From IMG/VR virus record IMGVR_UViG_3300033076_000411, positions 19,233 through 83,232 of that record: a stretch of 64,000 bases of DNA. One strand, given 5' to 3'. Made by a program: the position numbers and the translations under genes. This DNA comes from a virus. Taxonomy: Duplodnaviria; Caudoviricetes. Below the pieces are notes generated by a model that made no database searches, was not told the origin of the DNA, and was given only the letters and a program-made list of their open reading frames with translations. Numbering within the stretch: position 1 is the stretch's first letter; every line of letters begins with the position of its first letter. This document shows positions 217-20,500 of the stretch, piece by piece.

Positions 217-1413
217 ATGTCACAAGAACTATTAGAAAGCCGCTGGGGCGAAACCAAAGAAGCATTGCTTGAAGGTTTAAACGGCTCAAAGCGCAACAGC
301 ATGGGTGTTATCTTAGAAAACACTCGCAAGTACTTGAAAGAAAACGCTTCTGCGGGTTCTACAGCAAGTGGTAACATCGCTACACTTAACCGTGTAATTT
401 TGCCAGTTATCCGTCGTGTAATGCCAACCGTTATTGCTAACGAATTGGTAGGCGTTCAGCCAATGACAGGTCCAGTTGGCCAAATCCACACTCTACGTGT
501 TCGCTATGCAAACTCGTTGACAGACACTTCTGCTGCTGCTACTTCTGTATCAGCCGGTGAAGAAGCATTGTCACCATTCAAGATTGCTACTGCATACTCT
601 ACAGTTCCTGCTGGTACTAACTCTACTAGCAACTACACTGGTGGCAACACTGCTACCATGGAAGGTACTGGCGGTAAGCAAATTTCCGTACAAATCTTGA
701 AGCAAGCCGTTGAAGCTCGCACACGTAAGTTGCAAGCACGTTGGACTTTTGAATCTGCACAAGATGCACAAGCCATGCACGGTATTGACGTAGAAGCAGA
801 AATTATGGCTGCTTTGGCTCAAGAAATTACCGCTGAGATCGACCAAGAAATCCTTCTCAGCCTACGCTCTTTGGCCGCAACTGAGTTTACATACAACCAG
901 GCTACCGTTTCTGGTACTGCTACATTCGTTGGTGACGAACACGCTGCTTTGGCTGTTCTTATCAACCGTGTTGCAAACTTGATCGCACAACGTACACGTC
1001 GTGGCGCAGGTAACTACGCTGTTGTTTCTTCTGCTGCATTGACAGTATTGCAATCTGCAACTACTTCTGCATTTGCTCGTACTACAGAAGGTACATTCGA
1101 AGCACCTACAAACACTAAGTTTGTTGGTACATTGAACGGCTCTATGCGTGTGTTCGTTGACTCTTATGCTGCTGATACAACTCCAGTATTGGTTGGTTAC
1201 AAGGGTTCTAGCGAAGCAGACGCTCCAGCGTTCTACTGCCCATACATCCCATTGATGAGTTCTGGCGTTGTATTGGATCCAACAACATTCGAACCAGTCG
1301 TATCGTTCATGACACGTTATGGCTACATCGAATTGACTAACACTGCGTCATCTTTTGGTAACGCTGGTGACTACGTTGGTGAGATCGCAGTATCTAACTT
1401 GTCTTTCAGTTAA
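217..1413 (+). CDS. gp23: Major capsid protein, T4 gp23-like
   Basis: 398 aa with gp23 hallmark segments GVQPMTGPVGQIHTLR, RKLQARWTFESAQDAQAMHGIDVEAEIMAALAQEITAEIDQEI, FYCPYIPL, TRYG. RBS AGGAG upstream. Confidence 0.97.
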   Translation: MSQELLESRWGETKEALLEGLNGSKRNSMGVILENTRKYLKENASAGSTASGNIATLNRVILPVIRRVMPTVIANELVGVQPMTGPVGQIHTLRVRYANSLTDTSAAATSVSAGEEALSPFKIATAYSTVPAGTNSTSNYTGGNTATMEGTGGKQISVQILKQAVEARTRKLQARWTFESAQDAQAMHGIDVEAEIMAALAQEITAEIDQEILLSLRSLAATEFTYNQATVSGTATFVGDEHAALAVLINRVANLIAQRTRRGAGNYAVVSSAALTVLQSATTSAFARTTEGTFEAPTNTKFVGTLNGSMRVFVDSYAADTTPVLVGYKGSSEADAPAFYCPYIPLMSSGVVLDPTTFEPVVSFMTRYGYIELTNTASSFGNAGDYVGEIAVSNLSFS

Positions 1414-1436
1414 TCCATCCGGATTGCGAAAAACAC

Positions 1437-1461
1437 AAAAAGCACCTTCGGGTGCTTTTTT
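1437..1461 (+). terminator. Rho-independent terminator after the capsid gene
   Basis: aaaaagcacc-TTCG-ggtgcttttt-t: perfect stem, UUCG tetraloop, U tract. Confidence 0.85.
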
Positions 1462-1480
1462 GTTGGCTAAGTATCCTTAT

Positions 1481-2230
1481 ATGGCAATTCGAATCAACTC
1501 TTGGCCTAACCAGCCAACCAAAGTAGCAATCTTTACTGGAATCACTTGCAACCTAGCCTGCACACTTTGTGGGCCTGGTGCAAGTAGTTTATGGCGTTCA
1601 GAATTAGATATGGGCAAGTTCTCCCACGATGAGTATACACTAGAAAAAGATGAGATAATAACAGAAGTTGAAGATTATGATTTTTCTAAATTGGATCACG
1701 TTACCTTTGGTGGCGGCGAGCCGTTGTTAAACAAGTCATCGTTGGAAATTTTTAAAAAATTAAACGATCGTACTGAAATACTATTTCACTCAAACGGTAC
1801 AACATTACCGACTCAAGACTATCTAGATCAGTTTGCTAGATTTGACGATTTTATATTAGTGTTTAGCATTGACGACATAGAAGAACAGTTTGAATTGCTA
1901 CGGTGGCCAGCAAAGTGGAACAAGGTTGTAGAGAACATTCTTTGGTACAGAGAGAATTGCCCGCCTAATGTTAGATTTGCGTTTAACACAGTGGTAAGTC
2001 AACTAAATGATCAGTCGCATACAAGAGTACACAATTGGGTACAGCAACACATTCCTACCAACCGAGCAGGCGTAAACACAGTTTGGTTTACGAATGAAAC
2101 CAACGGATTGTTAAACAGATTAGAAAAAACAGATACTCGTGATCCAGTTAAGTTCCTTGACGAACTTGACGCTCGCCGCGGAACTAACTGGCGCCAAACA
2201 TTCCCTATCTACGCTCAACTGTATTCGTAA
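1481..2230 (+). CDS. Radical SAM domain protein (1 of 4)
   Basis: CNLACTLC (CxxxCxxC) and FGGGEPLLN motifs. Start moved from the ORF track's 1355 to ATG 1481, after the terminator and a TAAGTA box at 1468-1473. Confidence 0.85.
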   Translation: MAIRINSWPNQPTKVAIFTGITCNLACTLCGPGASSLWRSELDMGKFSHDEYTLEKDEIITEVEDYDFSKLDHVTFGGGEPLLNKSSLEIFKKLNDRTEILFHSNGTTLPTQDYLDQFARFDDFILVFSIDDIEEQFELLRWPAKWNKVVENILWYRENCPPNVRFAFNTVVSQLNDQSHTRVHNWVQQHIPTNRAGVNTVWFTNETNGLLNRLEKTDTRDPVKFLDELDARRGTNWRQTFPIYAQLYS

Positions 2231-2793
2231 GGTGTATCATCGTCAAGATAATCAGCATCAATGTGTTCGCCTTTAACGTTATCATATTCTCGGTAATAGG
2301 TCTCGTTGGGCATCAACGCTCTGAACTCTGATCCATACTTTAGCGTGGCAAATGTTGCTTCTTCTTTTTTCAGCAGGTCACAAATCACAAACGTTGAAGT
2401 ACATGCACCTGAGATGTACTTAAACGGAGAATGTTTAAATTCGTTCCTTTTCAATGCTTCATGGATCTGTGTAGCAGGTCTAAACATGATACGAGTAATG
2501 CCCAGTTTCTGATTACGAAGTCTAAACTTATCGTAGATATTCAACTCGCGAAGAGTAGCGCAGTTGTTCTCATCAATGGTGAGAAGAACTTCTTTGAATT
2601 TTAAACTGCCTTTGGTATGGGAATTGTCGGGCGTTTCCTTGGTGCTCCAAGGCATGTTGGCGTCAACATGATCGACATAGAAAGTTTCACCATGTGTTTT
2701 TAAGACCCACATTGGTATGGTCTCGTCCTCTAAGTGCTTTTTGTTAAAGTGGAAGACTACATCTTTACAAGCATATTCGATCTACATTGACAT
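2215..2793 (-). CDS. Hypothetical protein with in-frame amber (TAG) at codon 4; 192 aa if read through, 165 aa if started at ATG 2712
   Basis: Minus strand reads AAGGA-aataaa-ATG TCA ATG TAG ATC GAA TAT GCT TGT AAA GAT GTA GTC TTC CAC TTT AAC AAA AAG CAC TTA GAG GAC GAG ACC ATA CCA ATG TGG GTC..., in frame with the supplied 165-aa ORF. TAG is at 2782-2784. Confidence 0.75.
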
Positions 2794-2813
2794 TTTATTT
2801 CCTTTAAGTTAAA

Positions 2814-2889
2814 TGGTGCGCTAGGTGGGAATCGAACCCACACAAACAGCGGTTTAGAATCGCCTACTCAGCCATTGAGAATCTAGCGC
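2814..2889 (-). tRNA. tRNA with CUA anticodon (amber-suppressor type), encoded 3' CCA
   Basis: Reverse complement GCGCTAG AT TCTC AATGGCT GAGT A GGCGA TTCTAAA CCGCT GTTTGT GTGGG TTCGATT CCCAC CTAGCGC A CCA. It has a 7-bp acceptor stem, D-loop GG, 5-bp T stem with TTCGA, and anticodon loop U-U-C-U-A-A-A. Confidence 0.85.
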
Positions 2890-2897
2890 ATGTCGCT

Positions 2898-2925
2898 ATT
2901 ATATAGCATAACATAAATGTTACAA
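2898..2925 (-). promoter_or_regulatory. Putative sigma70-type promoter driving the tRNA and amber-containing gene
   Basis: Minus strand TTGTAA-16 nt-TATAAT, with the -10 box ending 8 nt before the tRNA 5' end. Confidence 0.55.
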
Positions 2926-3709: not shown

Positions 3710-4771
3710 CTACAAAGATTGGACCAAATTATAAAGTTCTCTAAACTGTTGCAGGTTAAAATCTCTGAGTTTGTTAAACCCTGCCATGTTTTTAGCATGC
3801 TGGTCTTGTGTGTCTAGCGAAACTTTGTTTTTGATAAGATTAGGAATCTGAGATAGCATAAGATCTACTCGTTGCATATTGTTTGTAATTGTATCAAACG
3901 ACATATCAAATTGCCCTAACGATAAGTCGATTCCAAACGACTCAGACAACCATGTGTTATATCCAGTGGCTCCTAGCATTAAACACGGTACGCCCATTAT
4001 CAGTGGCTTGATAGTTTTTTCGGTTAGATGAAACTCTTGTATTTGCCATCCACGGCCGTAGTACGGATCAGTTTCGTGCTGTATTTCAAAATAAAATTTC
4101 TGGTACAACTCTACAGGTATTAGTTTTGCTGGAATCAACCAAGGGGTTTCATTAAACGTGTTGCCGTCAAAGTAAAAAGTTTTAGGATCGTAGTCAACCA
4201 AATCTAAATTTGGAGCCAATGATTTATCGACTTGTTTGCCGCTGTACTTTACTAGGCTGTTGCTTAGATCAAATGTAGACAGTCGATTGATCATGTGTGA
4301 TCGCAGCCAACTAAGTCGCCCTATTAAACAAAAGAAATCGTATACAGGTTCTCGTTTACTGCTTTGTGCCCAGGTATATTGATGTACAGGGTTAAATGTT
4401 CCTTGTCCGTATTCAAAAATTTCAACAAATCTAGTAAACGTTTTGATAATCTTTAGATCGGGCAGTGCTTTTTTAATTACATCAGGATCAGCATACGACT
4501 CAGTAACCAGTATATAAGATTTTGTTAAGTCGAATACTTTTAAGCCGTCAAATATTTGTTGAAACGTTTCAGTAACAACAATGTTAATGTCTTTCCATGG
4601 TATATAGGTTCGGTGGTCCAGATCATACCAATCAACGGCTAATATATCACCGGATTCATCAGACCAGGTTATCGTGGGGTCAGATTTTATTGCTGCGGAT
4701 AAACCAATAAAGTTTTTTATAGTATCAAGTTCGCCGCGAAGATTACCTGGTCCTAAGGTCTGTATTTGCAT
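3710..4771 (-). CDS. Hypothetical protein, possible glycosyltransferase-like C-terminal domain; ends in TAG
   Basis: 353-aa ORF translationally coupled (TAATG) to the upstream gene. The motif FEIQHET...HLTEKTIKPLIMGVPCLMLG resembles phage GT-B/fucosyltransferase-like proteins. Confidence 0.5.
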   Translation of the reverse strand: MQIQTLGPGNLRGELDTIKNFIGLSAAIKSDPTITWSDESGDILAVDWYDLDHRTYIPWKDINIVVTETFQQIFDGLKVFDLTKSYILVTESYADPDVIKKALPDLKIIKTFTRFVEIFEYGQGTFNPVHQYTWAQSSKREPVYDFFCLIGRLSWLRSHMINRLSTFDLSNSLVKYSGKQVDKSLAPNLDLVDYDPKTFYFDGNTFNETPWLIPAKLIPVELYQKFYFEIQHETDPYYGRGWQIQEFHLTEKTIKPLIMGVPCLMLGATGYNTWLSESFGIDLSLGQFDMSFDTITNNMQRVDLMLSQIPNLIKNKVSLDTQDQHAKNMAGFNKLRDFNLQQFRELYNLVQSL

Positions 4772-5967: not shown

Positions 5968-5984
5968 CTAGTTTAAAACTATGT

Positions 5985-6047
5985 ACGCAATAATGCGTCT
6001 TATGCAGCAACCACTGCGTAGCGGCTAGAACCCGCATTGGGCTTCTA
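5985..6047 (+). promoter_or_regulatory. Structured 5' leader (tandem hairpins)
   Basis: acgca-ataa-tgcgt; tatgcag-caacca-ctgcgta; gcgg-ctagaac-ccgc; alternative tagaaccc/gggcttcta next to RBS TAAGGAG. Confidence 0.45.
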
Positions 6048-6061
6048 TAAGGAGAAATCAA

Positions 6062-6889
6062 ATGGGAAGAGCTCTTAAAATTCAAAAAACAAACATCGGT
6101 GCAGGTACAACTGTTACCGGTACAGTTACCGCGTATAACCAAAACGTTTTAACTGACGCAGGTTACCCTAACTTTGGTAGCCTAACTGATCCAGTTTATA
6201 ACTCTGCTGACACATTGAGTGCGACAGACTTCTTGGGCGTTGTAGGCGGTTCACCTGCTACTTCTACTGCTTCAGCAACTTATCCAGAAATTTCTGCATT
6301 GGTTAACATCGAATTAGCAGACGGAACAGATAGTTATACTGCTACAAGTTCATACACTGGTCGCATTATCCGCCAAAAAGGTAGCCACAAGTTCTTGGTT
6401 GCTGCTACAGGCGCAACTATTGCCGATGAATCAATGATCGTAGGTCAAGCATATCAAATCGCTGTACTAGGTACAACTGATTGGCAAGCCTGCGGTGCTG
6501 GCACACAATCTGCTGTTGGCGATATCTTTACTGCTACTGCTGCTGGCGCTGGTACAGGCGAAGTATATGCAGTTGGTCAGTGCGTGTTGTCTAACACTGC
6601 TACTCCTGCTGCTGGTGACATGGCAATTGGCTTCTCTGTAGGCGACAGTTCTGCTGTTTATGCTAGTTACATTACCAACAAGTGGATCCGTGACTGGAAC
6701 GGCATGACTTACGGTAACTACTCAGACAGCAACACTGGTGTTAACGTTCAAACCAGTGAAAACTTCTACCCTGTTAACTTCTTCACTGACGAAGGCACAG
6801 TTACATGGTCTGGCGCTGAAGTTATCGGTGGCTCACAATCACAAAACGGTACACTACAATTGGCTCAAGTCGACAAAGTTACTTCTTAA
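6062..6889 (+). CDS. Hypothetical protein, probably virion structural
   Basis: 275 aa, T/A/G-rich beta-type composition, strong RBS, late box upstream, terminator downstream. Confidence 0.6.
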   Translation: MGRALKIQKTNIGAGTTVTGTVTAYNQNVLTDAGYPNFGSLTDPVYNSADTLSATDFLGVVGGSPATSTASATYPEISALVNIELADGTDSYTATSSYTGRIIRQKGSHKFLVAATGATIADESMIVGQAYQIAVLGTTDWQACGAGTQSAVGDIFTATAAGAGTGEVYAVGQCVLSNTATPAAGDMAIGFSVGDSSAVYASYITNKWIRDWNGMTYGNYSDSNTGVNVQTSENFYPVNFFTDEGTVTWSGAEVIGGSQSQNGTLQLAQVDKVTS

Positions 6890-9069: not shown

Positions 9070-12000
9070 ATGACACAACAGATCATTGACATTGGTGCAG
9101 CAGCAAACGATGGCACCGGAGAACCGTTACGCGATGCTTTCAACGCTGTAAACGAAAATTTTACAGAAATTTATGCGGCTGGACCCGTTGATAGCAACAT
9201 TGCGATTGCTAACAACACAATTAGCGTAACTAACACCAATGGAAACTTGGTTCTAATGCCAAACGGCATTGGCGTTGTCCAGTCAAACAGTACAATTGTT
9301 CCCAGCATCGACAATGTTTACGACCTCGGTAGCCCAACTTTAAGATTTAACACAGTTAATGCCGGTTACTTTATTGGTAACGGTGCTGGACTTACTGGAG
9401 TTACTGCGGCTAGTGGTCCTTATATTGCCAATGGTACTTCTAACGTTACCGTGGTGTCCAGCGGCGGAAATGTTACAATTGGTATCCAGACAACTAGCAA
9501 TACAGTAGTCTTTGGTCGTTACGATTCTACATTTAAAGGTAACATTCTTCCTGCTTCGAACGTAACATACAATTTAGGTAGCCCAACTTCTGCTTGGAAA
9601 GATTTATATCTATCTAACAGCACTGTTTATCTCAATAACGCTGCTATTTCTGCCAACTCAACAGCATTTACATTTTCTACACCAACCGGTGGAACAATTT
9701 CTCTGCAAGGCAGCGGCACATTAGAACCGTATGGTAATGCAAACGTTGCTACATATCTGCCAACATACACTGGTGCATTGCGCGGCTCGAACGTTAGTGT
9801 TAGTGGTAACGTAACTGGTGCATACATTTTTGGTAACGGTTCTCAACTAACTGGCTTACCTGCAACATATTCTAACGCTGATGTCGCTGCTTATTTGGCC
9901 AGCGGCACAGATTCATCTAACATCATTACAACAGCAGGTGTTTCTGGTGCCACAGTTACAGCCACAGGTAACGTAACTGGCGGCAATATTAGAACGGCTG
10001 GCCAAGTCTCTGCAACTGGTAACATCACTGGTAACTATTTCCTTGGTAATGGTGCATTGCTATCTGGATTACCAGAGACTTATTCTAACGCTAATGTTCA
10101 GGCATACTTGCCAACTTATTCTGGCAATATCGGATCTATTACTGCAACTGGTAACATTCAAGTTGTTAATGGTATCTTCATTGGTAACGGTTCAGGACTA
10201 ACTGGTGTTGTAGCAAGTTCGAACGTGGGCGCAGCAAGTAAACTTTCGAACGGAACAACAGAATTTAATATTCCTATCGCAAATGGAAATGTAGTAGGCA
10301 ATATTGGTGGAGTAACCAACGTTTACGAATTTGGTTCAACTGGAATGACAGTCGCTGGAGACATTTCTGCAACTGGAAATTTAATTGGTAATATTTCTAA
10401 ACCGGGTGCTGGTGCAACTCTAATGATCAATGTAGGTGGCACCAGTGAATGGGAATTCACTGATGTCGGCGATCTAACTGCTCCGGGGAATATTACAACA
10501 GTTGCTAATATCCAAGCCGGTTACTTTATTGGTAACGGTGCTGGCCTTACTGGCTTGCCAGCAGGATATTCAAATTCTGATGTTTCTACATACCTGGCCA
10601 GCGGCACAGATACTGCTAATATTATTACAACTGGTAATGTTCAAGCAACCGCAGTCAAGACAAACTTAATCAACAATACCGGTGGCAATGAAAGAATTAC
10701 AATTGACCCAGACAATACAGCATTGGGTTATATTAAAGTATACGGATTTGAAGACGGCGGCGAAAGAGTAGTAATTTCCAACCAATACACTGGTAGCAAT
10801 GGTATCTATTTCTACACAGAAGGTGGAAACACATTTAGATTTGTTGGCAATCAAATGTTGTTTCCGGACGCAACAACACAGACTACTGCGTTTACTGGTA
10901 GTTTGAGTGGTGCTAACTCGGTTGACATCACAGGCAACGTTACAACAACAGCCAACATCAGTGGTGCTTATATCTTAGGTAACGGTAGCCAACTTACTGG
11001 CTTGCCCGCTGGATATTCTAATGCAGACGTTGCATCATATTTGGCCAGCGGCACAGACACTAGCAATATCATTACATCAGGTAACATCGGCGGCGGCAAT
11101 TTGTCTTTGTCTGGTGATGTCCTTTCTCAAAATATTAGAACAATCGAAGGTACAGTTCACGTAGGTCAAGGTGCAGGCCTAACTAACCAAGGCACATACG
11201 GTATTGCAATGGGACGGTTTGCAGGCTCGCAAAATCAAGGCGGCGCTGGCGTAGCCGTTGGTCAGTTAGCAGGTCAAATTAGCCAAGGTGTTTCTGCTGT
11301 TGCTATTGGTCTTTATGCAGCGGCCAATACTCAAAGTGCTAATGCTGTAGCAGTGGGCACTTATGCTGGTCAACTCTTTCAAGGCGCAGACTCTGTTGCT
11401 ATTGGTAAACTAGCCGGCAATAACACTCAAGGTTCAGACTCTGTTGCGGTTGGCCCAAATGCAGGTGCTGACGCACAAGGTATTGGTGCTATTGCAATAG
11501 GTAGCAGTGCTGGTATAACTTCCCAAGGAAATAGTGCTGTCGCTCTAGGCGCAACTGCTGGTCAAACCAACCAGGCAGATTTTGCTGTGGCAGTTGGTAG
11601 TGGTGCTGCCTACAACGGACAAGGTGCTGGCGCTATTGCTATCGGCGTTGACGCATCTCCTACTAATCAAGGTGATTACAGTATTGCCATTGGTGCCGGT
11701 GTGTCAACCAATGCTGCACAACCAAACAACAGCATTATCATTGACGCTACAGTGAGTTCGTTGCAGGCTACAGGTGCCGGCTTATTTGTTGCCCCAATTC
11801 GCGATGATGTTGCAAATGCAGGCAATCCTATAAGTTATAACACTTCTACTAAAGAATTAACATACTCAAATACAGTCAGCGTTGCAGGTAATGTAACTGG
11901 CGGAAACATCAACACAGTTGGTATTGTTTCGGCTACAGCAAATGTTCGTGGTGGCAACATAAACACAGCAGGTTTGGTAACCGCCGCAGGCAACGTGTAT

Positions 12001-17598: not shown

Positions 17599-20500
17599 TG
17601 GCTTATATCGGTATTAATCCTAATACACCGTTGCTTAATACCAGCACTGAATTCTTTAGTGGAAATAGTGCTGCTACTGAGTTTACGTTGAACAGAGCAG
17701 TTTCATCAGCGTCGGATCTTGACGTTATGATCGGCACTACATTGCAGCGTCCGTATACAGATTATACCGCTGGGAACACAACATTGTTGTTCACAAGTGC
17801 TCCAGGCACTGGATCTAATAACATCACTGTTACATATCGTGCTGGTGCTCTAAACTCTCTAGACTTGACAGCCAGCGTTTTTAACTCTGGCACAGAAGGC
17901 AACCCCAGTGTCTACTCATTAGCAGGCGACAACACAGGTATCTACTGGGCTAACTCACAATCGATGAGTGTCACAGTTCAAGGATCGGACCGTGTAGTAT
18001 TCAACGGCAACGCTACTTCGGTTAGTTCAACAACTGGTGCGATTGTTGTTGCAGGTGGAGTTGGCGCAGCAGGCAACGTTAATGTAACTGGAATTATTGC
18101 TACTTCCAACAACACAGAAAGTTCATCAGTTTATAATGGTGCTCTAACTGTGGGCGGCGGAGCAGGCATTGTTGGTAACTTAAACGTTGGCGGAGATATT
18201 ACCTGCGTTGGTGACTTTACAGTTAACGGTATCTTTACTACTACTGGTACAGACTCTCTAGAAGTTAACGATCCGTTTATCTTCTTGGCCAACGCCAACC
18301 CAGGCGACACTTACGATACAGGTGTTGTCTCTCAATACTACGATGGTGCAAATACTCGTTACACTGGTTATTTCCGCGACATCACAGATAACAAATACAA
18401 GTTGTTTGGTAATTTGTTAACAAAACCCAGTACAACAGTTGACACAGGTAATGCAAGTTTCCAACTACAAGATTTAGTCTTAGCCAATCTATCTGCTACT
18501 GGTACAGTTAATGCAGCATACTTGTACGGTGACGGTTCTAATTTAACAGGTATCTCCACAGATACTACACAAATTTTAAATAGCACCAGTAAGGTTATTA
18601 TTCCTTCGGCTAACGGCAACATTGTTGCCAACGTTAACGGTGTTACAATCGCTAACATTTGGTCTAGCGGTATCGCTGTAGTTGGTGGTGTTACTACAAC
18701 AACTACTCTTAGTGCAACCGGTAACGTTGCTGGTGGCAACATCACAACTGCTGGTGCTGTTAGCGCCGCTGGTAACATCGTTACCAGCACAGGCAATGTA
18801 AGTGGCGGCAATATTTTAACTGGCGGTTTAATCCAAGCCACTGCTAACATTGACGGGGGCAACTTACGTACTACTGGGCAAGTATCAGCAGGTGGCAACA
18901 TTCAAGGCGGTAACATTAAAACTGCTGGATTGATTTCGGCAACTGGTGATATCTACGGTACTAACTTTATTGGAACTACTGCTACTGCAACTGCTAACAT
19001 CGACGGTGGTAATATCATCAGCCAAGGTATTGTAACCACAGTTGGCGATATCTTAGGTGGTGGCGCAGTAAGTGCAGTTGGTAACATCACCGGCGGCAAT
19101 GTTAACACAGGTATTTTAAGTTTAACCGGTAACATTCTTGGTGCTATTAACACAGTTTCGAACGTTACAACAACTGGTAACATTGCTGGTGGCAATATAT
19201 TTGCATCGCAATTGTTGCAAGGTGTGACATTGAGTGCGTCAGGCGGAGTTACATTCAGCACCTCTGCACAAGCAATTAATATTGCTACAAGCCAAACAAC
19301 TGGTAATGCAAATATTGGCGGAACAGCACAAACAGGTTTCATTACCGTTGGCCGCTCAACCGCCACACAACCAATCTACATTGGCAACGGTGTCACATCA
19401 TCAGGCAACACCAAAACTCTCAGCATTGGTGAAAATGGTGCAGCAGGGTCTACAACTACTATTGGGATAGGTGCTGCATTAGGCACAGGCTCAGCAACAT
19501 TTAACGCTGCAACTCCTGTAGCAATTGCTAACACCAGCGGTACTGCTCTTAGTGTAGCAGGTAATATCACAGGCGGTAACTTGTCTACATCAGGTAGCGG
19601 TGGCAACATTACAGGTGCCAACGTTGTATCTGCAACAACGTTTAACGGTACCACTATTTCAATGTCGGGTAACATCACAGGCGGTAACGTTATTTCGATT
19701 GCTGCGGTAAGTGCTGTATCCGTAGTAGCAACTGGCAACGTAAACGGTGGCAACCTAATTACCACCGGTGCTATTTCTGCAGGTGGATTAGTTTCTGCAA
19801 CTGGTAACGTAACAGGCGGTAACATCAACACAGCAGGTTTAGTAAGTTCAACAGGTAACGTTACCAACGGCATTGCTAACGTACTTACTGGTAACTTGCT
19901 TGCCACAACATTGGTATCAGGGGCAACACTAACTGGCACAACACTCAGTGCGTCAGGTAACGTTGTTGGTGGTAACTTAAATGCTGCTGGACTGAGCCTA
20001 AGTGGCAACGTTATCTCAGCGTTGAACATGGTTACAGCCATTACTACCACTGCTAACATCACCGGCGGCAACATTTTAACCAGTGGATTAATCAGTGCAA
20101 CTGGTGCAGTTACTGGCAGTCAGTTCAACGGTTCAGGTGCTGGACTTACATCGATTCCGGCAGCAAACGTAACAGGTACATTGAGTGTTAATACCACAGG
20201 CTATGCAGCCACAGTATCTGGTGCAGCCCAGGCAAACATTACTTCAGTTGGTACACTAACAAGTTTAGCAGTTACTGGCGCAGTTACAGCCGGAAGTTTG
20301 AATATTTCAACAGGTACCGCCAACGTTGGTAGTATCACCAATGCTAACGCAACTGGTGTAGGCAATATCGGTAATGCTACTGTGGGCTTTAACACAATAT
20401 TTGCTAAAGCAACATCAGCACAATACGCTGACTTGGCAGAAAATTATGCAGCCGATGCAAAATATGCTCCGGGTACTGTGTTAGAATTTGGTGGTGAATT

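Follow-up and report, generated by a model that had tools for sequence, protein, structure and literature searches.

Phages that read TAG as glutamine (“code 15”) or TGA as tryptophan (“code 4”), among them crAss-like, Lak and other gut phages, carry suppressor tRNAs (bioRxiv 10.1101/2021.08.26.457843; PMC7886860). In these recoded phages, tens to hundreds of in-frame stop codons are found in late or lytic genes, and the reassigned codon is dropped as a terminator. For the standard-code jumbo phage XacN1, the targets of the CUA suppressors could not be identified (PMC5852040), and the paper on phage Atu_ph07 lists a tRNA-UCA suppressor and Pth genes without connecting them, guessing at read-through of gene ends (PMC6102473). 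Here, we analyse a stretch of 64,000 nucleotides (“the window”; positions 19,233 to 83,232 of the IMG/VR virus record IMGVR_UViG_3300033076_000411), in which a tRNA with the anticodon CUA precedes a gene carrying an in-frame TAG at codon 4. With the recoded phages, this locus shares a phage tRNA(CUA) for in-frame UAG in a standard-code host and the proposal that read-through serves regulation. It differs from them in that one codon of one gene is concerned, at the extreme N-terminus after a throw-away leader, and in that TAG stays a terminator.

Our favoured reading, to which we assign a probability of roughly 80%, is a lock-and-key translational gate, in which read-through of the leader UAG by tRNA(CUA) would be needed to make a protein of 192 amino acids (aa). 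The source record comprises 83,232 bp, is estimated to be 24% complete and holds tRNA(CUA) as its sole tRNA. On the minus strand of the window, the −10 hexamer of a σ70-type promoter ends 8 nt ahead of tRNA base 1, and 20 nt separate the tRNA's CCA from the leader ATG (Table 1). The TAG is followed by 188 in-frame sense codons up to a TGA (2217–2215), 23 of which lie between the TAG and an open reading frame (ORF) of 165 aa (2712–2215) in the same frame. The original prediction, which was made from the sequence of the window, had described promoter, CUA tRNA, AAGGA six nucleotides ahead of the ATG, TCA-ATG-TAG and the 23 codons; all of them lie where it placed them. It had also noted that the standard ORF track misses the read-through gene, and indeed the track starts at ATG 2712 and reports 165 aa instead of 192.

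A search with the read-through product retrieved 1,400 relatives, mostly 190–192 aa in length with the N-terminal extension included, so that homologues do extend upstream of the MWVLK motif through IEYACKDVVFHFNKKHL. Along with the family alignment, 80 IMG/VR loci were fetched, 78 of which contain the N-terminus and, together with the window, make up a protein-first set of 79 loci. In all 79, the homologous codon is TAG and never TAA, TGA or a sense codon. It lies 24 codons (25 in four loci) ahead of the MWVLK motif, directly precedes I-E-[YF], and follows a Shine-Dalgarno (SD) sequence, an ATG and a leader of one to eight codons that is variable in sequence; SD-like purine runs precede the leader ATG in the relatives. 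In 63 distinct contexts of close relatives, on which the codon-variation analysis was based, T, A and G of the stop are invariant, as is the A that follows. Taking all fetched loci together, 133 of 139 are gated, across branch lengths of more than 0.5 changes per site; the six ungated loci are scattered on the tree, requiring at least two to four state changes, and the TAG has therefore been held through deep divergence. A private nonsense mutation or an assembly error, either of which the original prediction had named as grounds for abandoning the idea, is ruled out by a TAG kept at the exact codon in this many loci. Among cultured phages, Rhizobium phage RHph_I1_18 is a carrier, with an unannotated 82-aa homologue (MSEFM-TAG-NESC) and an annotated tRNA(cta) (10911-10988 of its record) that starts 12 nt after its stop.

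The suppressor travels with the gene. Within a flank of 2.5 kb, tRNA(CUA) is found in 57 of the 79 loci, invariably on the strand of the gene and, with one exception, upstream of it at distances of 26 to 2,415 nt. In the 22 records without a flank tRNA, a covariance model located a CUA tRNA outside the flank in each of the 13 longer ones, among them the two genomes (331 and 364 kb) with a completeness of 90% or more; the remaining nine are fragments (seven of 8–16 kb and two with the gene at the contig edge). The co-occurrence of TAG and tRNA, which had been put forward as a check, thus holds wherever the contig is long enough. Conversely, a tRNA-first scan of IMG/VR yielded 120 stretches, and ARAGORN calls a CUA tRNA in 92 of them. 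The gene is present with TAG in 38 and in a TAG-less form in four.

The same gate is found on other genes. In IMG/VR contigs, PTH2 and PTH2-like genes near CUA tRNAs display an SD sequence and ATG, one to seven further codons, a TAG and then the conserved domain (Table 1); the codon after TAG is GTT, GTA, ATT, ATA or AAC and, in one case, GTG. In the phages Phosso and Atu_ph07, there is no in-frame ATG, GTG or TTG between the leader stop of PTH2 and the Met of the conserved R-x-D-L-x-M-x-x-G-K motif; both genes are annotated from an internal Met, by which the first 12 positions of the Pfam profile are cut off. As Phosso pairs TAG with a CUA suppressor and Atu_ph07 TGA with a UCA suppressor, the type of stop follows the suppressor anticodon. 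Right after a gated PTH2-like gene, an HD-like gene with its own ATG-x-TAG leader occurs in two contigs; its protein has a YHIYHDCGK motif and matches Pfam HD weakly (E 0.016). A stringent form of the gate pattern, applied to 1.09 Mb around CUA tRNAs, was met with TAG 22 times, with TGA six times (in junk-looking frames) and never with TAA. The PTH2 genes of XacN1, Xoo-sp13, RHph_I1_18, phiM12 and Baka have ordinary starts and no gate; the PTH2 gate is therefore lineage-specific. The 92-aa PTH2 annotated in Xoo-sp13 (L267:1285-1563; MN047793) is truncated by a simple misannotation and has no gate; an AAGGAG-ATG about 30 codons upstream gives the full domain.

Table 1. Coordinates of the gated gene and its control elements in the window, of gated genes in other phages and contigs, and of further features.
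Feature	Position	Strand	Details
σ70-type promoter	2898..2925	-	TTGTAA 2925-2920, 16-nt spacer, TATAAT 2903-2898; 10/12 matches
Amber suppressor tRNA(CUA), 76 nt	2814..2889	-	ARAGORN and Rfam RF00005
Shine-Dalgarno AAGGA	2800..2804	-	9 nt after tRNA CCA, 6 nt ahead of leader ATG
Leader ATG-TCA-ATG (Met-Ser-Met)	2785..2793	-	ATG at 2793-2791
In-frame TAG, codon 4, putative gate	2782..2784	-	next base A; sequence and conservation
N-terminal beta domain, residues 5-85, WW-like motif	2539..2781	-	AlphaFold2 model, predicted local distance difference test (pLDDT) 89
C-terminal alpha/beta domain, residues 86-192, with TGA stop	2215..2538	-	AlphaFold2 model, mean pLDDT 85
Gated PTH2/PTH2-like genes	L195:4548-5006, L250:1970-2308, L185:897-1253, L200:6274-6645		SD-ATG-leader-TAG
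Gated PTH2/PTH2-like genes	L230:2864-3193, L199:3-455, L229:787-1188, L147:5389-5763		SD-ATG-leader-TAG
Phosso PTH2	L084:1884-2381 (PV764938)		MKY-TAG leader; phage has tRNA(CUA)
Atu_ph07 PTH2	L083:1929-2381 (MF403008)		MIGEHF-TGA leader; only suppressor is UCA (PMC6102473)
HD-like gene after gated PTH2-like gene	L230:3202-3795	+	own ATG-x-TAG leader
HD-like gene after gated PTH2-like gene	L185:60-596	-	own ATG-x-TAG leader
HNH/NUMOD3 homing-endonuclease gene	L174:7209-7901	-	MYLQNKYTK-TAG-YNNII
Radical-SAM gene	1355..2230	+	Pfam 1.3e-15
Rfam “freshwater-2” motif, full length	5983..6064	+	72.8 bits, cut-off 49.9

The conserved anatomy could also be explained by mini-ORF coupling, in which ribosomes would end a tiny upstream ORF at UAG and re-initiate on the codon directly behind it (in the window AUU, a weak start codon as in infC), with tRNA(CUA) having an unrelated job. 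This is the most serious rival of the gate, albeit an improbable one. It is in accordance with ATT, ATC or ATA following the TAG in 63 of 63 close relatives, and with the TAG-less versions, which have an ATG at or next to the TAG position (M-IELxCDD, MEM-VCKE, MTT-EIACKD), so that a functional protein begins there; many of the more distant database members likewise begin with M-IEL or M-VEI. However, coupling gives no reason for the stop to be TAG and never the commoner TAA or TGA, even though synonymous sites are saturated, and it leaves the co-occurrence and linkage of tRNA(CUA) unexplained. Furthermore, in gated members of greater divergence, the TAG is followed by AAC, AAA/AAG or GTA, so that the triplet behind the stop does not serve as a start; the same applies to GTT, GTA and AAC in the gated PTH2 genes. 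Finally, the stop changes to TGA in the phage with a UCA suppressor.

As an observation in its own right, an HNH/NUMOD3 homing-endonuclease gene on contig L174, which carries a family-type tRNA(CUA), has an in-frame TAG in its N-terminal region and its HNH motif ahead of the first canonical start. It represents either a selfish gene in decay or one more target of read-through.

Several lines of evidence concern the tRNA itself. It scores 40.1 bits with Rfam RF00005 (cut-off 29), has an encoded CCA and is of class I, with G1:C72, C2:G71, G3:C70 and the discriminator A73. In an alignment of 47 members, covariation was judged over 20 stem pairs against 500 shuffles; 95.8% of the stem cells are paired, 17 of the 20 pairs show compensatory changes, and none of the 500 shuffles was as good. 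G1:C72, C2:G71, A73, CCA, the CUA anticodon, U33 and A37 are invariant in the alignment, G3:C70 and A38 nearly so, and the 31:39 pair is frequently mismatched; the anticodon loop reads YU-CUA-AA in 47/47, comprising 7 nt with U33 and a purine at 37. Judged by these features, the molecule is a real elongator-type tRNA and a predicted amber suppressor. After suppressors, the tRNA model fits tRNA-Lys(CUU/UUU) and tRNA-Met best. Upstream of the relatives' tRNAs, 46 distinct regions were compared, 33 of which have a −10 hexamer with at least 5/6 matches, mostly with its end 8 nt ahead of tRNA base 1; a −35 hexamer (at least 4/6), often TTGACA 16–17 nt further up, accompanies it in 23 of the 33. This suggests that the tRNA is transcribed by the host σ70 polymerase with a start almost at the mature 5′ end. 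The suppressors of Phosso (L086, 446731-446806; acceptor stem GCTTCCA) and Atu_ph07 (L087, 430713-430787; GGGAGTG) are unlike the aquatic GCG...CGC family, and the difference in acceptor stems between the phages implies that suppressors of different origin serve similar gates.

Two other identities of the tRNA were considered and rejected. ARAGORN labels it tRNA-Pyl, a label based only on the anticodon. tRNA-Pyl has a 3-nt variable loop and a long anticodon stem, and lacks G18G19 and the T-psi-C consensus. The tRNA discussed here has GG in the D loop, GGTTCGA in the T loop and a variable loop of 5–6 nt; it is not a tRNA-Pyl because its D and T loops are canonical. Bacterial initiator tRNAs are characterized by a mismatch between positions 1 and 72 and by an anticodon stem with three G:C pairs at its base. 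As 1:72 is paired in 47/47 members and the anticodon stem is without the run of three G:C pairs, the tRNA is not an initiator, and a use of UAG as a start codon is set aside together with it.

A related possibility, even less probable than mini-ORF coupling, is that UAG specifies a special residue, perhaps a non-standard one, with which the mature protein would begin. Charging or modification of the tRNA would then follow a dedicated, Pyl- or Sec-like route, and the residue itself would matter in addition to the gate. The fixed position of the TAG directly ahead of the first conserved residue would be in line with this, the invariant acceptor end (G1:C72, C2:G71, A73) suggests a specific charging enzyme, and the tRNA-Pyl label, which reflects the anticodon only, points the same way. 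Against it stand the canonical loops and the variable loop just described, the lack of a conserved neighbouring enzyme gene, the initiator Met that TAG-less relatives have at this place, and the occurrence of the same N-terminal gate on the unrelated PTH2 and HD-like proteins. Glutamine as the inserted residue was also dismissed; the “Q” that database homologues show at the TAG position stems from the gene callers' translation with TAG=Q, the two that were looked up being translated only “with_TAG=Q”.

Whether translation proceeds past the TAG can be judged from the stretch between TAG and Met28 (ATG 2712–2710), which is conserved and lies inside the N-terminal beta domain. Third positions after the TAG vary freely (C22/G33, C32/T31, A29/G28) and amino acids are conserved, which shows that the stretch is translated in frame. 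The AlphaFold model places the first long strand of the domain here, with a pLDDT of about 90. If, instead, the TAG were a true stop, the product would comprise 165 aa from Met28 and the upstream conservation would not be coding. This is a slimmer prospect than the special residue, although M28 is invariant and many gene callers start there; the 23 codons after the TAG evolve as coding sequence, their strand belongs to the modelled domain, TAG-less homologues and PTH2 fusions contain the stretch, and M28 is conserved even in proteins whose starts lie a long way from it. The GAGGA ahead of ATG 2712, to which the original prediction had drawn attention, is present in the window, yet it is no conserved internal SD sequence, as its Glu codon is GAA in 57 of 63 relatives.

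The protein matches no Pfam or PHROG family and has no usable match in the ESM Atlas. It is modelled as an N-terminal beta domain followed by a ferredoxin-like C-terminal domain. Fold searches with the full model and the N-domain (Foldseek and VIA-align) were uninformative, with a best Z of 5.0 (ACT/RRM-like) for the C-domain and of 3.7 (assorted OB-like barrels) for the N-domain. The latter contains a WW-like motif, W-x4-G-x2-[FY]-Y-V-N-H-x6-W, with W29 and W49 present; in WW domains (PF00397), two Trp residues 20–22 residues apart flank a three-stranded sheet. The family profile matches WW-repeat proteins at 1e-5 to 3e-4 and, weakly, the WW domains of NEDD4/Itch (E 0.1–0.4), and Pfam WW matches none of 44 family members.

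A membership of the protein in PTH2 (PF01981) was rejected, because there is no Pfam match and the profile-profile match with PTH2 is confined to the WW-like domain of fusion proteins; nor was there any profile-profile signal for the C-domain as a divergent PTH2. In the PTH2 fusion P0181, PF01981 matches at 1.6e-7 over residues 2–88, and the WW-like domain occupies residues 107–176; P0213, P0199, P0254 and P0188 resemble it by motif. In Phosso and Atu_ph07, PTH2 is followed by a small gene and then by the gene for the domain protein, the stop codons overlapping with the start codons, and in contigs L200 and L204, a PTH2-like gene is adjacent. By these comparisons, the N-domain is a new, PTH2-associated domain and the protein an associate rather than a member of PTH2. 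Because its domain is fused to or encoded beside PTH2, the protein most likely acts on ribosomes or peptidyl-tRNA. No conserved gene neighbourhood besides the tRNA was found, the neighbours being a mixture of AhpC, CMD, an AAA ATPase, a zinc ribbon, GDSL and an outer membrane protein barrel.

With regard to the genetic code of the genome, 74 long, non-overlapping ORFs of the record end in TAA (51), TGA (18) or TAG (5), including an ordinary TAG-ended gene at 3710–4771 of the window. In the complete 364-kb relative, 394 ORFs end in TAA (234), TGA (136) or TAG (24); thus, TAG ends 6–7% of ordinary genes. The TAG terminators show neither a +4-base bias nor nearby back-up stops. Frames split by a single TAG are rarer than those split by TAA or TGA. 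A scan of the whole 83-kb record for an SD-ATG, at most 12 codons, TAG and a long open frame found no case besides this gene, which bears out the statement that no other gene is interrupted by TAG; a second gated candidate in the complete relative (G009, at 6604) was rejected as an antisense-looking frame. RGPP-type arrest leaders were not found near the module in G000 or G009. A genome-wide code 15 is ruled out by TAG still serving as a terminator in both genomes and by this gene alone being interrupted. A partial, code-15-like recoding with further TAG genes in the missing 76% of the genome is the least likely of all the explanations, since, notwithstanding the incompleteness of the record and the TAG=Q setting chosen by gene callers for many short contigs, the complete relative combines its 24 TAG terminators with no other convincing in-frame TAG. 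The original view that the tRNA serves one gene holds in this lineage as far as the 24% complete record and the complete relative, which shows only this gene, reveal it; in other phages, PTH2-like and HD-like genes are gated by members of this tRNA family.

Two further places in the record are worth recording. At about 37154 of the window (minus strand), an SD-ATG-GAA-TAA mini-ORF stands in frame before an open frame of 137 codons, the first canonical start of which is 19 codons in; it is the record's only TAA case of a gate-like pattern and probably due to chance. Upstream of and outside the window (G000:C1:1723-3651), ORFs of 300 aa and 338 aa, which by eye we take to be gp55-like and gp47-like, share one frame, with nothing but TAG-TAT-ACT-AGA-TAG between them. 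Reading through both stops would join the two, and side effects of suppression might show at this place.

The mechanism we propose starts with the transcription of tRNA(CUA) by the host RNA polymerase from the tRNA's own σ70-type promoter; in this window, the downstream gene would be on the same transcript. Ribosomes would start at the SD-ATG and reach UAG after two more codons. In the absence of a charged suppressor, release factor 1 would stop translation after the tripeptide and no protein would result; with a charged suppressor, UAG would be decoded and the 192-aa protein made. We infer from the comparison of the loci that the tRNA is charged and decodes UAG, and that the protein appears only with the suppressor active. 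Placed right before the first conserved residue, the stop would constitute an all-or-none gate that is nearly cost-free.

Three observations weigh against this reading. An efficient suppressor should be costly, because TAG ends 5/74 and 24/394 ORFs without the safeguards of back-up stops or a +4 bias; this either counts against the model or argues for a modest suppression efficiency. In addition, TAG-less homologues lie beside a family-type tRNA in four aquatic contigs (L165, L194, L200 and L218), and a family-type tRNA is present without this gene in the complete genome G029 (332 kb). The tRNA is, therefore, not strictly tied to this gene.

As to the purpose of such a gate, we favour, as a conjecture, a sensor of read-through or a feed-forward link that ties a PTH2-linked factor for ribosomes or peptidyl-tRNA to suppressor activity. 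Speculatively, the output would track the read-through caused by the phage tRNA, comparable to the UGA of prfB. A timer, a host-compatibility gate, a dosage limiter and an “addiction” that keeps the tRNA are conjectural alternatives. A broader proposal, which we hold tentatively and at slightly less than even odds, is a “suppressor regulon” in standard-code jumbo phages: tRNA(CUA) or tRNA(UCA) would unlock a few translation-related, leader-stop-locked genes, namely those for the WW-like PTH2 partner, PTH2 or PTH2-like hydrolases and an HD-like enzyme, and the circuit would measure read-through and adjust the capacity for peptidyl-tRNA and ribosome rescue.

Several features place the locus in context. 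By family search, the record encodes a T4-type gp23 capsid gene, and the capsid protein of the window is 62–66% identical to those of Phosso, PA5oct, a Vibrio jumbo phage and jumbo Erwinia phages. A radical-SAM gene (Table 1) converges on the gated gene with an overlap of the 3′ ends of about 16 nt; its TTG-start ORF overlaps the end of the capsid gene, and the real start is probably further downstream. The Rfam “freshwater-2” match ends in AAGGAGAAAUCAAAUG, directly on the SD sequence and start codon of the downstream ORF, which fits a cis-regulatory leader and a freshwater origin.

Full-text searches of the literature found no account of a phage suppressor tRNA that is matched to an N-terminal stop gate on a particular gene. 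The present analysis gives the orphan suppressor tRNAs of standard-code big phages a concrete, conserved target in more than 130 contigs and a cultured Rhizobium phage, and it points to a wider rule, according to which PTH2 is gated by TAG or TGA depending on the phage's suppressor. If the gate is real, it would represent a natural, gene-specific translational lock made from one tRNA and one codon, and a new way in which a virus couples the expression of a translation-related factor to its own manipulation of termination; moreover, it would offer ready-made parts for orthogonal switches, and a suppressor regulon would account for the presence of orphan suppressor tRNAs in large phages. For annotation, the lesson is that standard ORF callers truncate such genes to Met28 or miss them, and that multi-code callers mislabel the contigs as code 15.

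Compared with the orphan suppressors of XacN1 and Atu_ph07, the kind of phage and of tRNA is the same, but a specific conserved target is now identified; Atu_ph07 has a leader-TGA gate before PTH2, whereas the PTH2 of XacN1 itself has a normal start. Early in-frame stops with a regulatory role are known from prfB, encoding RF2, in which a +1 frameshift leads past a UGA and it is the release factor that is sensed. The likeness lies in an early in-frame stop that ties the yield of a translation factor to the decoding of that stop; here, however, a dedicated tRNA would carry ribosomes across the stop without a change of frame, and feedback on decoding is a conjecture. The bar minigenes of phage lambda are very short ORFs that cause drop-off of peptidyl-tRNA and are toxic when Pth is limiting. 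They share with the present module the anatomy of SD-ATG, one to eight codons and a stop, and a link to peptidyl-tRNA hydrolase genes; in contrast to them, a conserved protein continues in frame past the stop. The same logic, a gene expressed only where a tRNA(CUA) is active, underlies laboratory systems such as the amber mutants of T4 and lambda on supD/E/F hosts and the orthogonal tRNA gates of synthetic biology. Unlike these, the gate proposed here would be natural, phage-borne and kept by selection across deep divergence.

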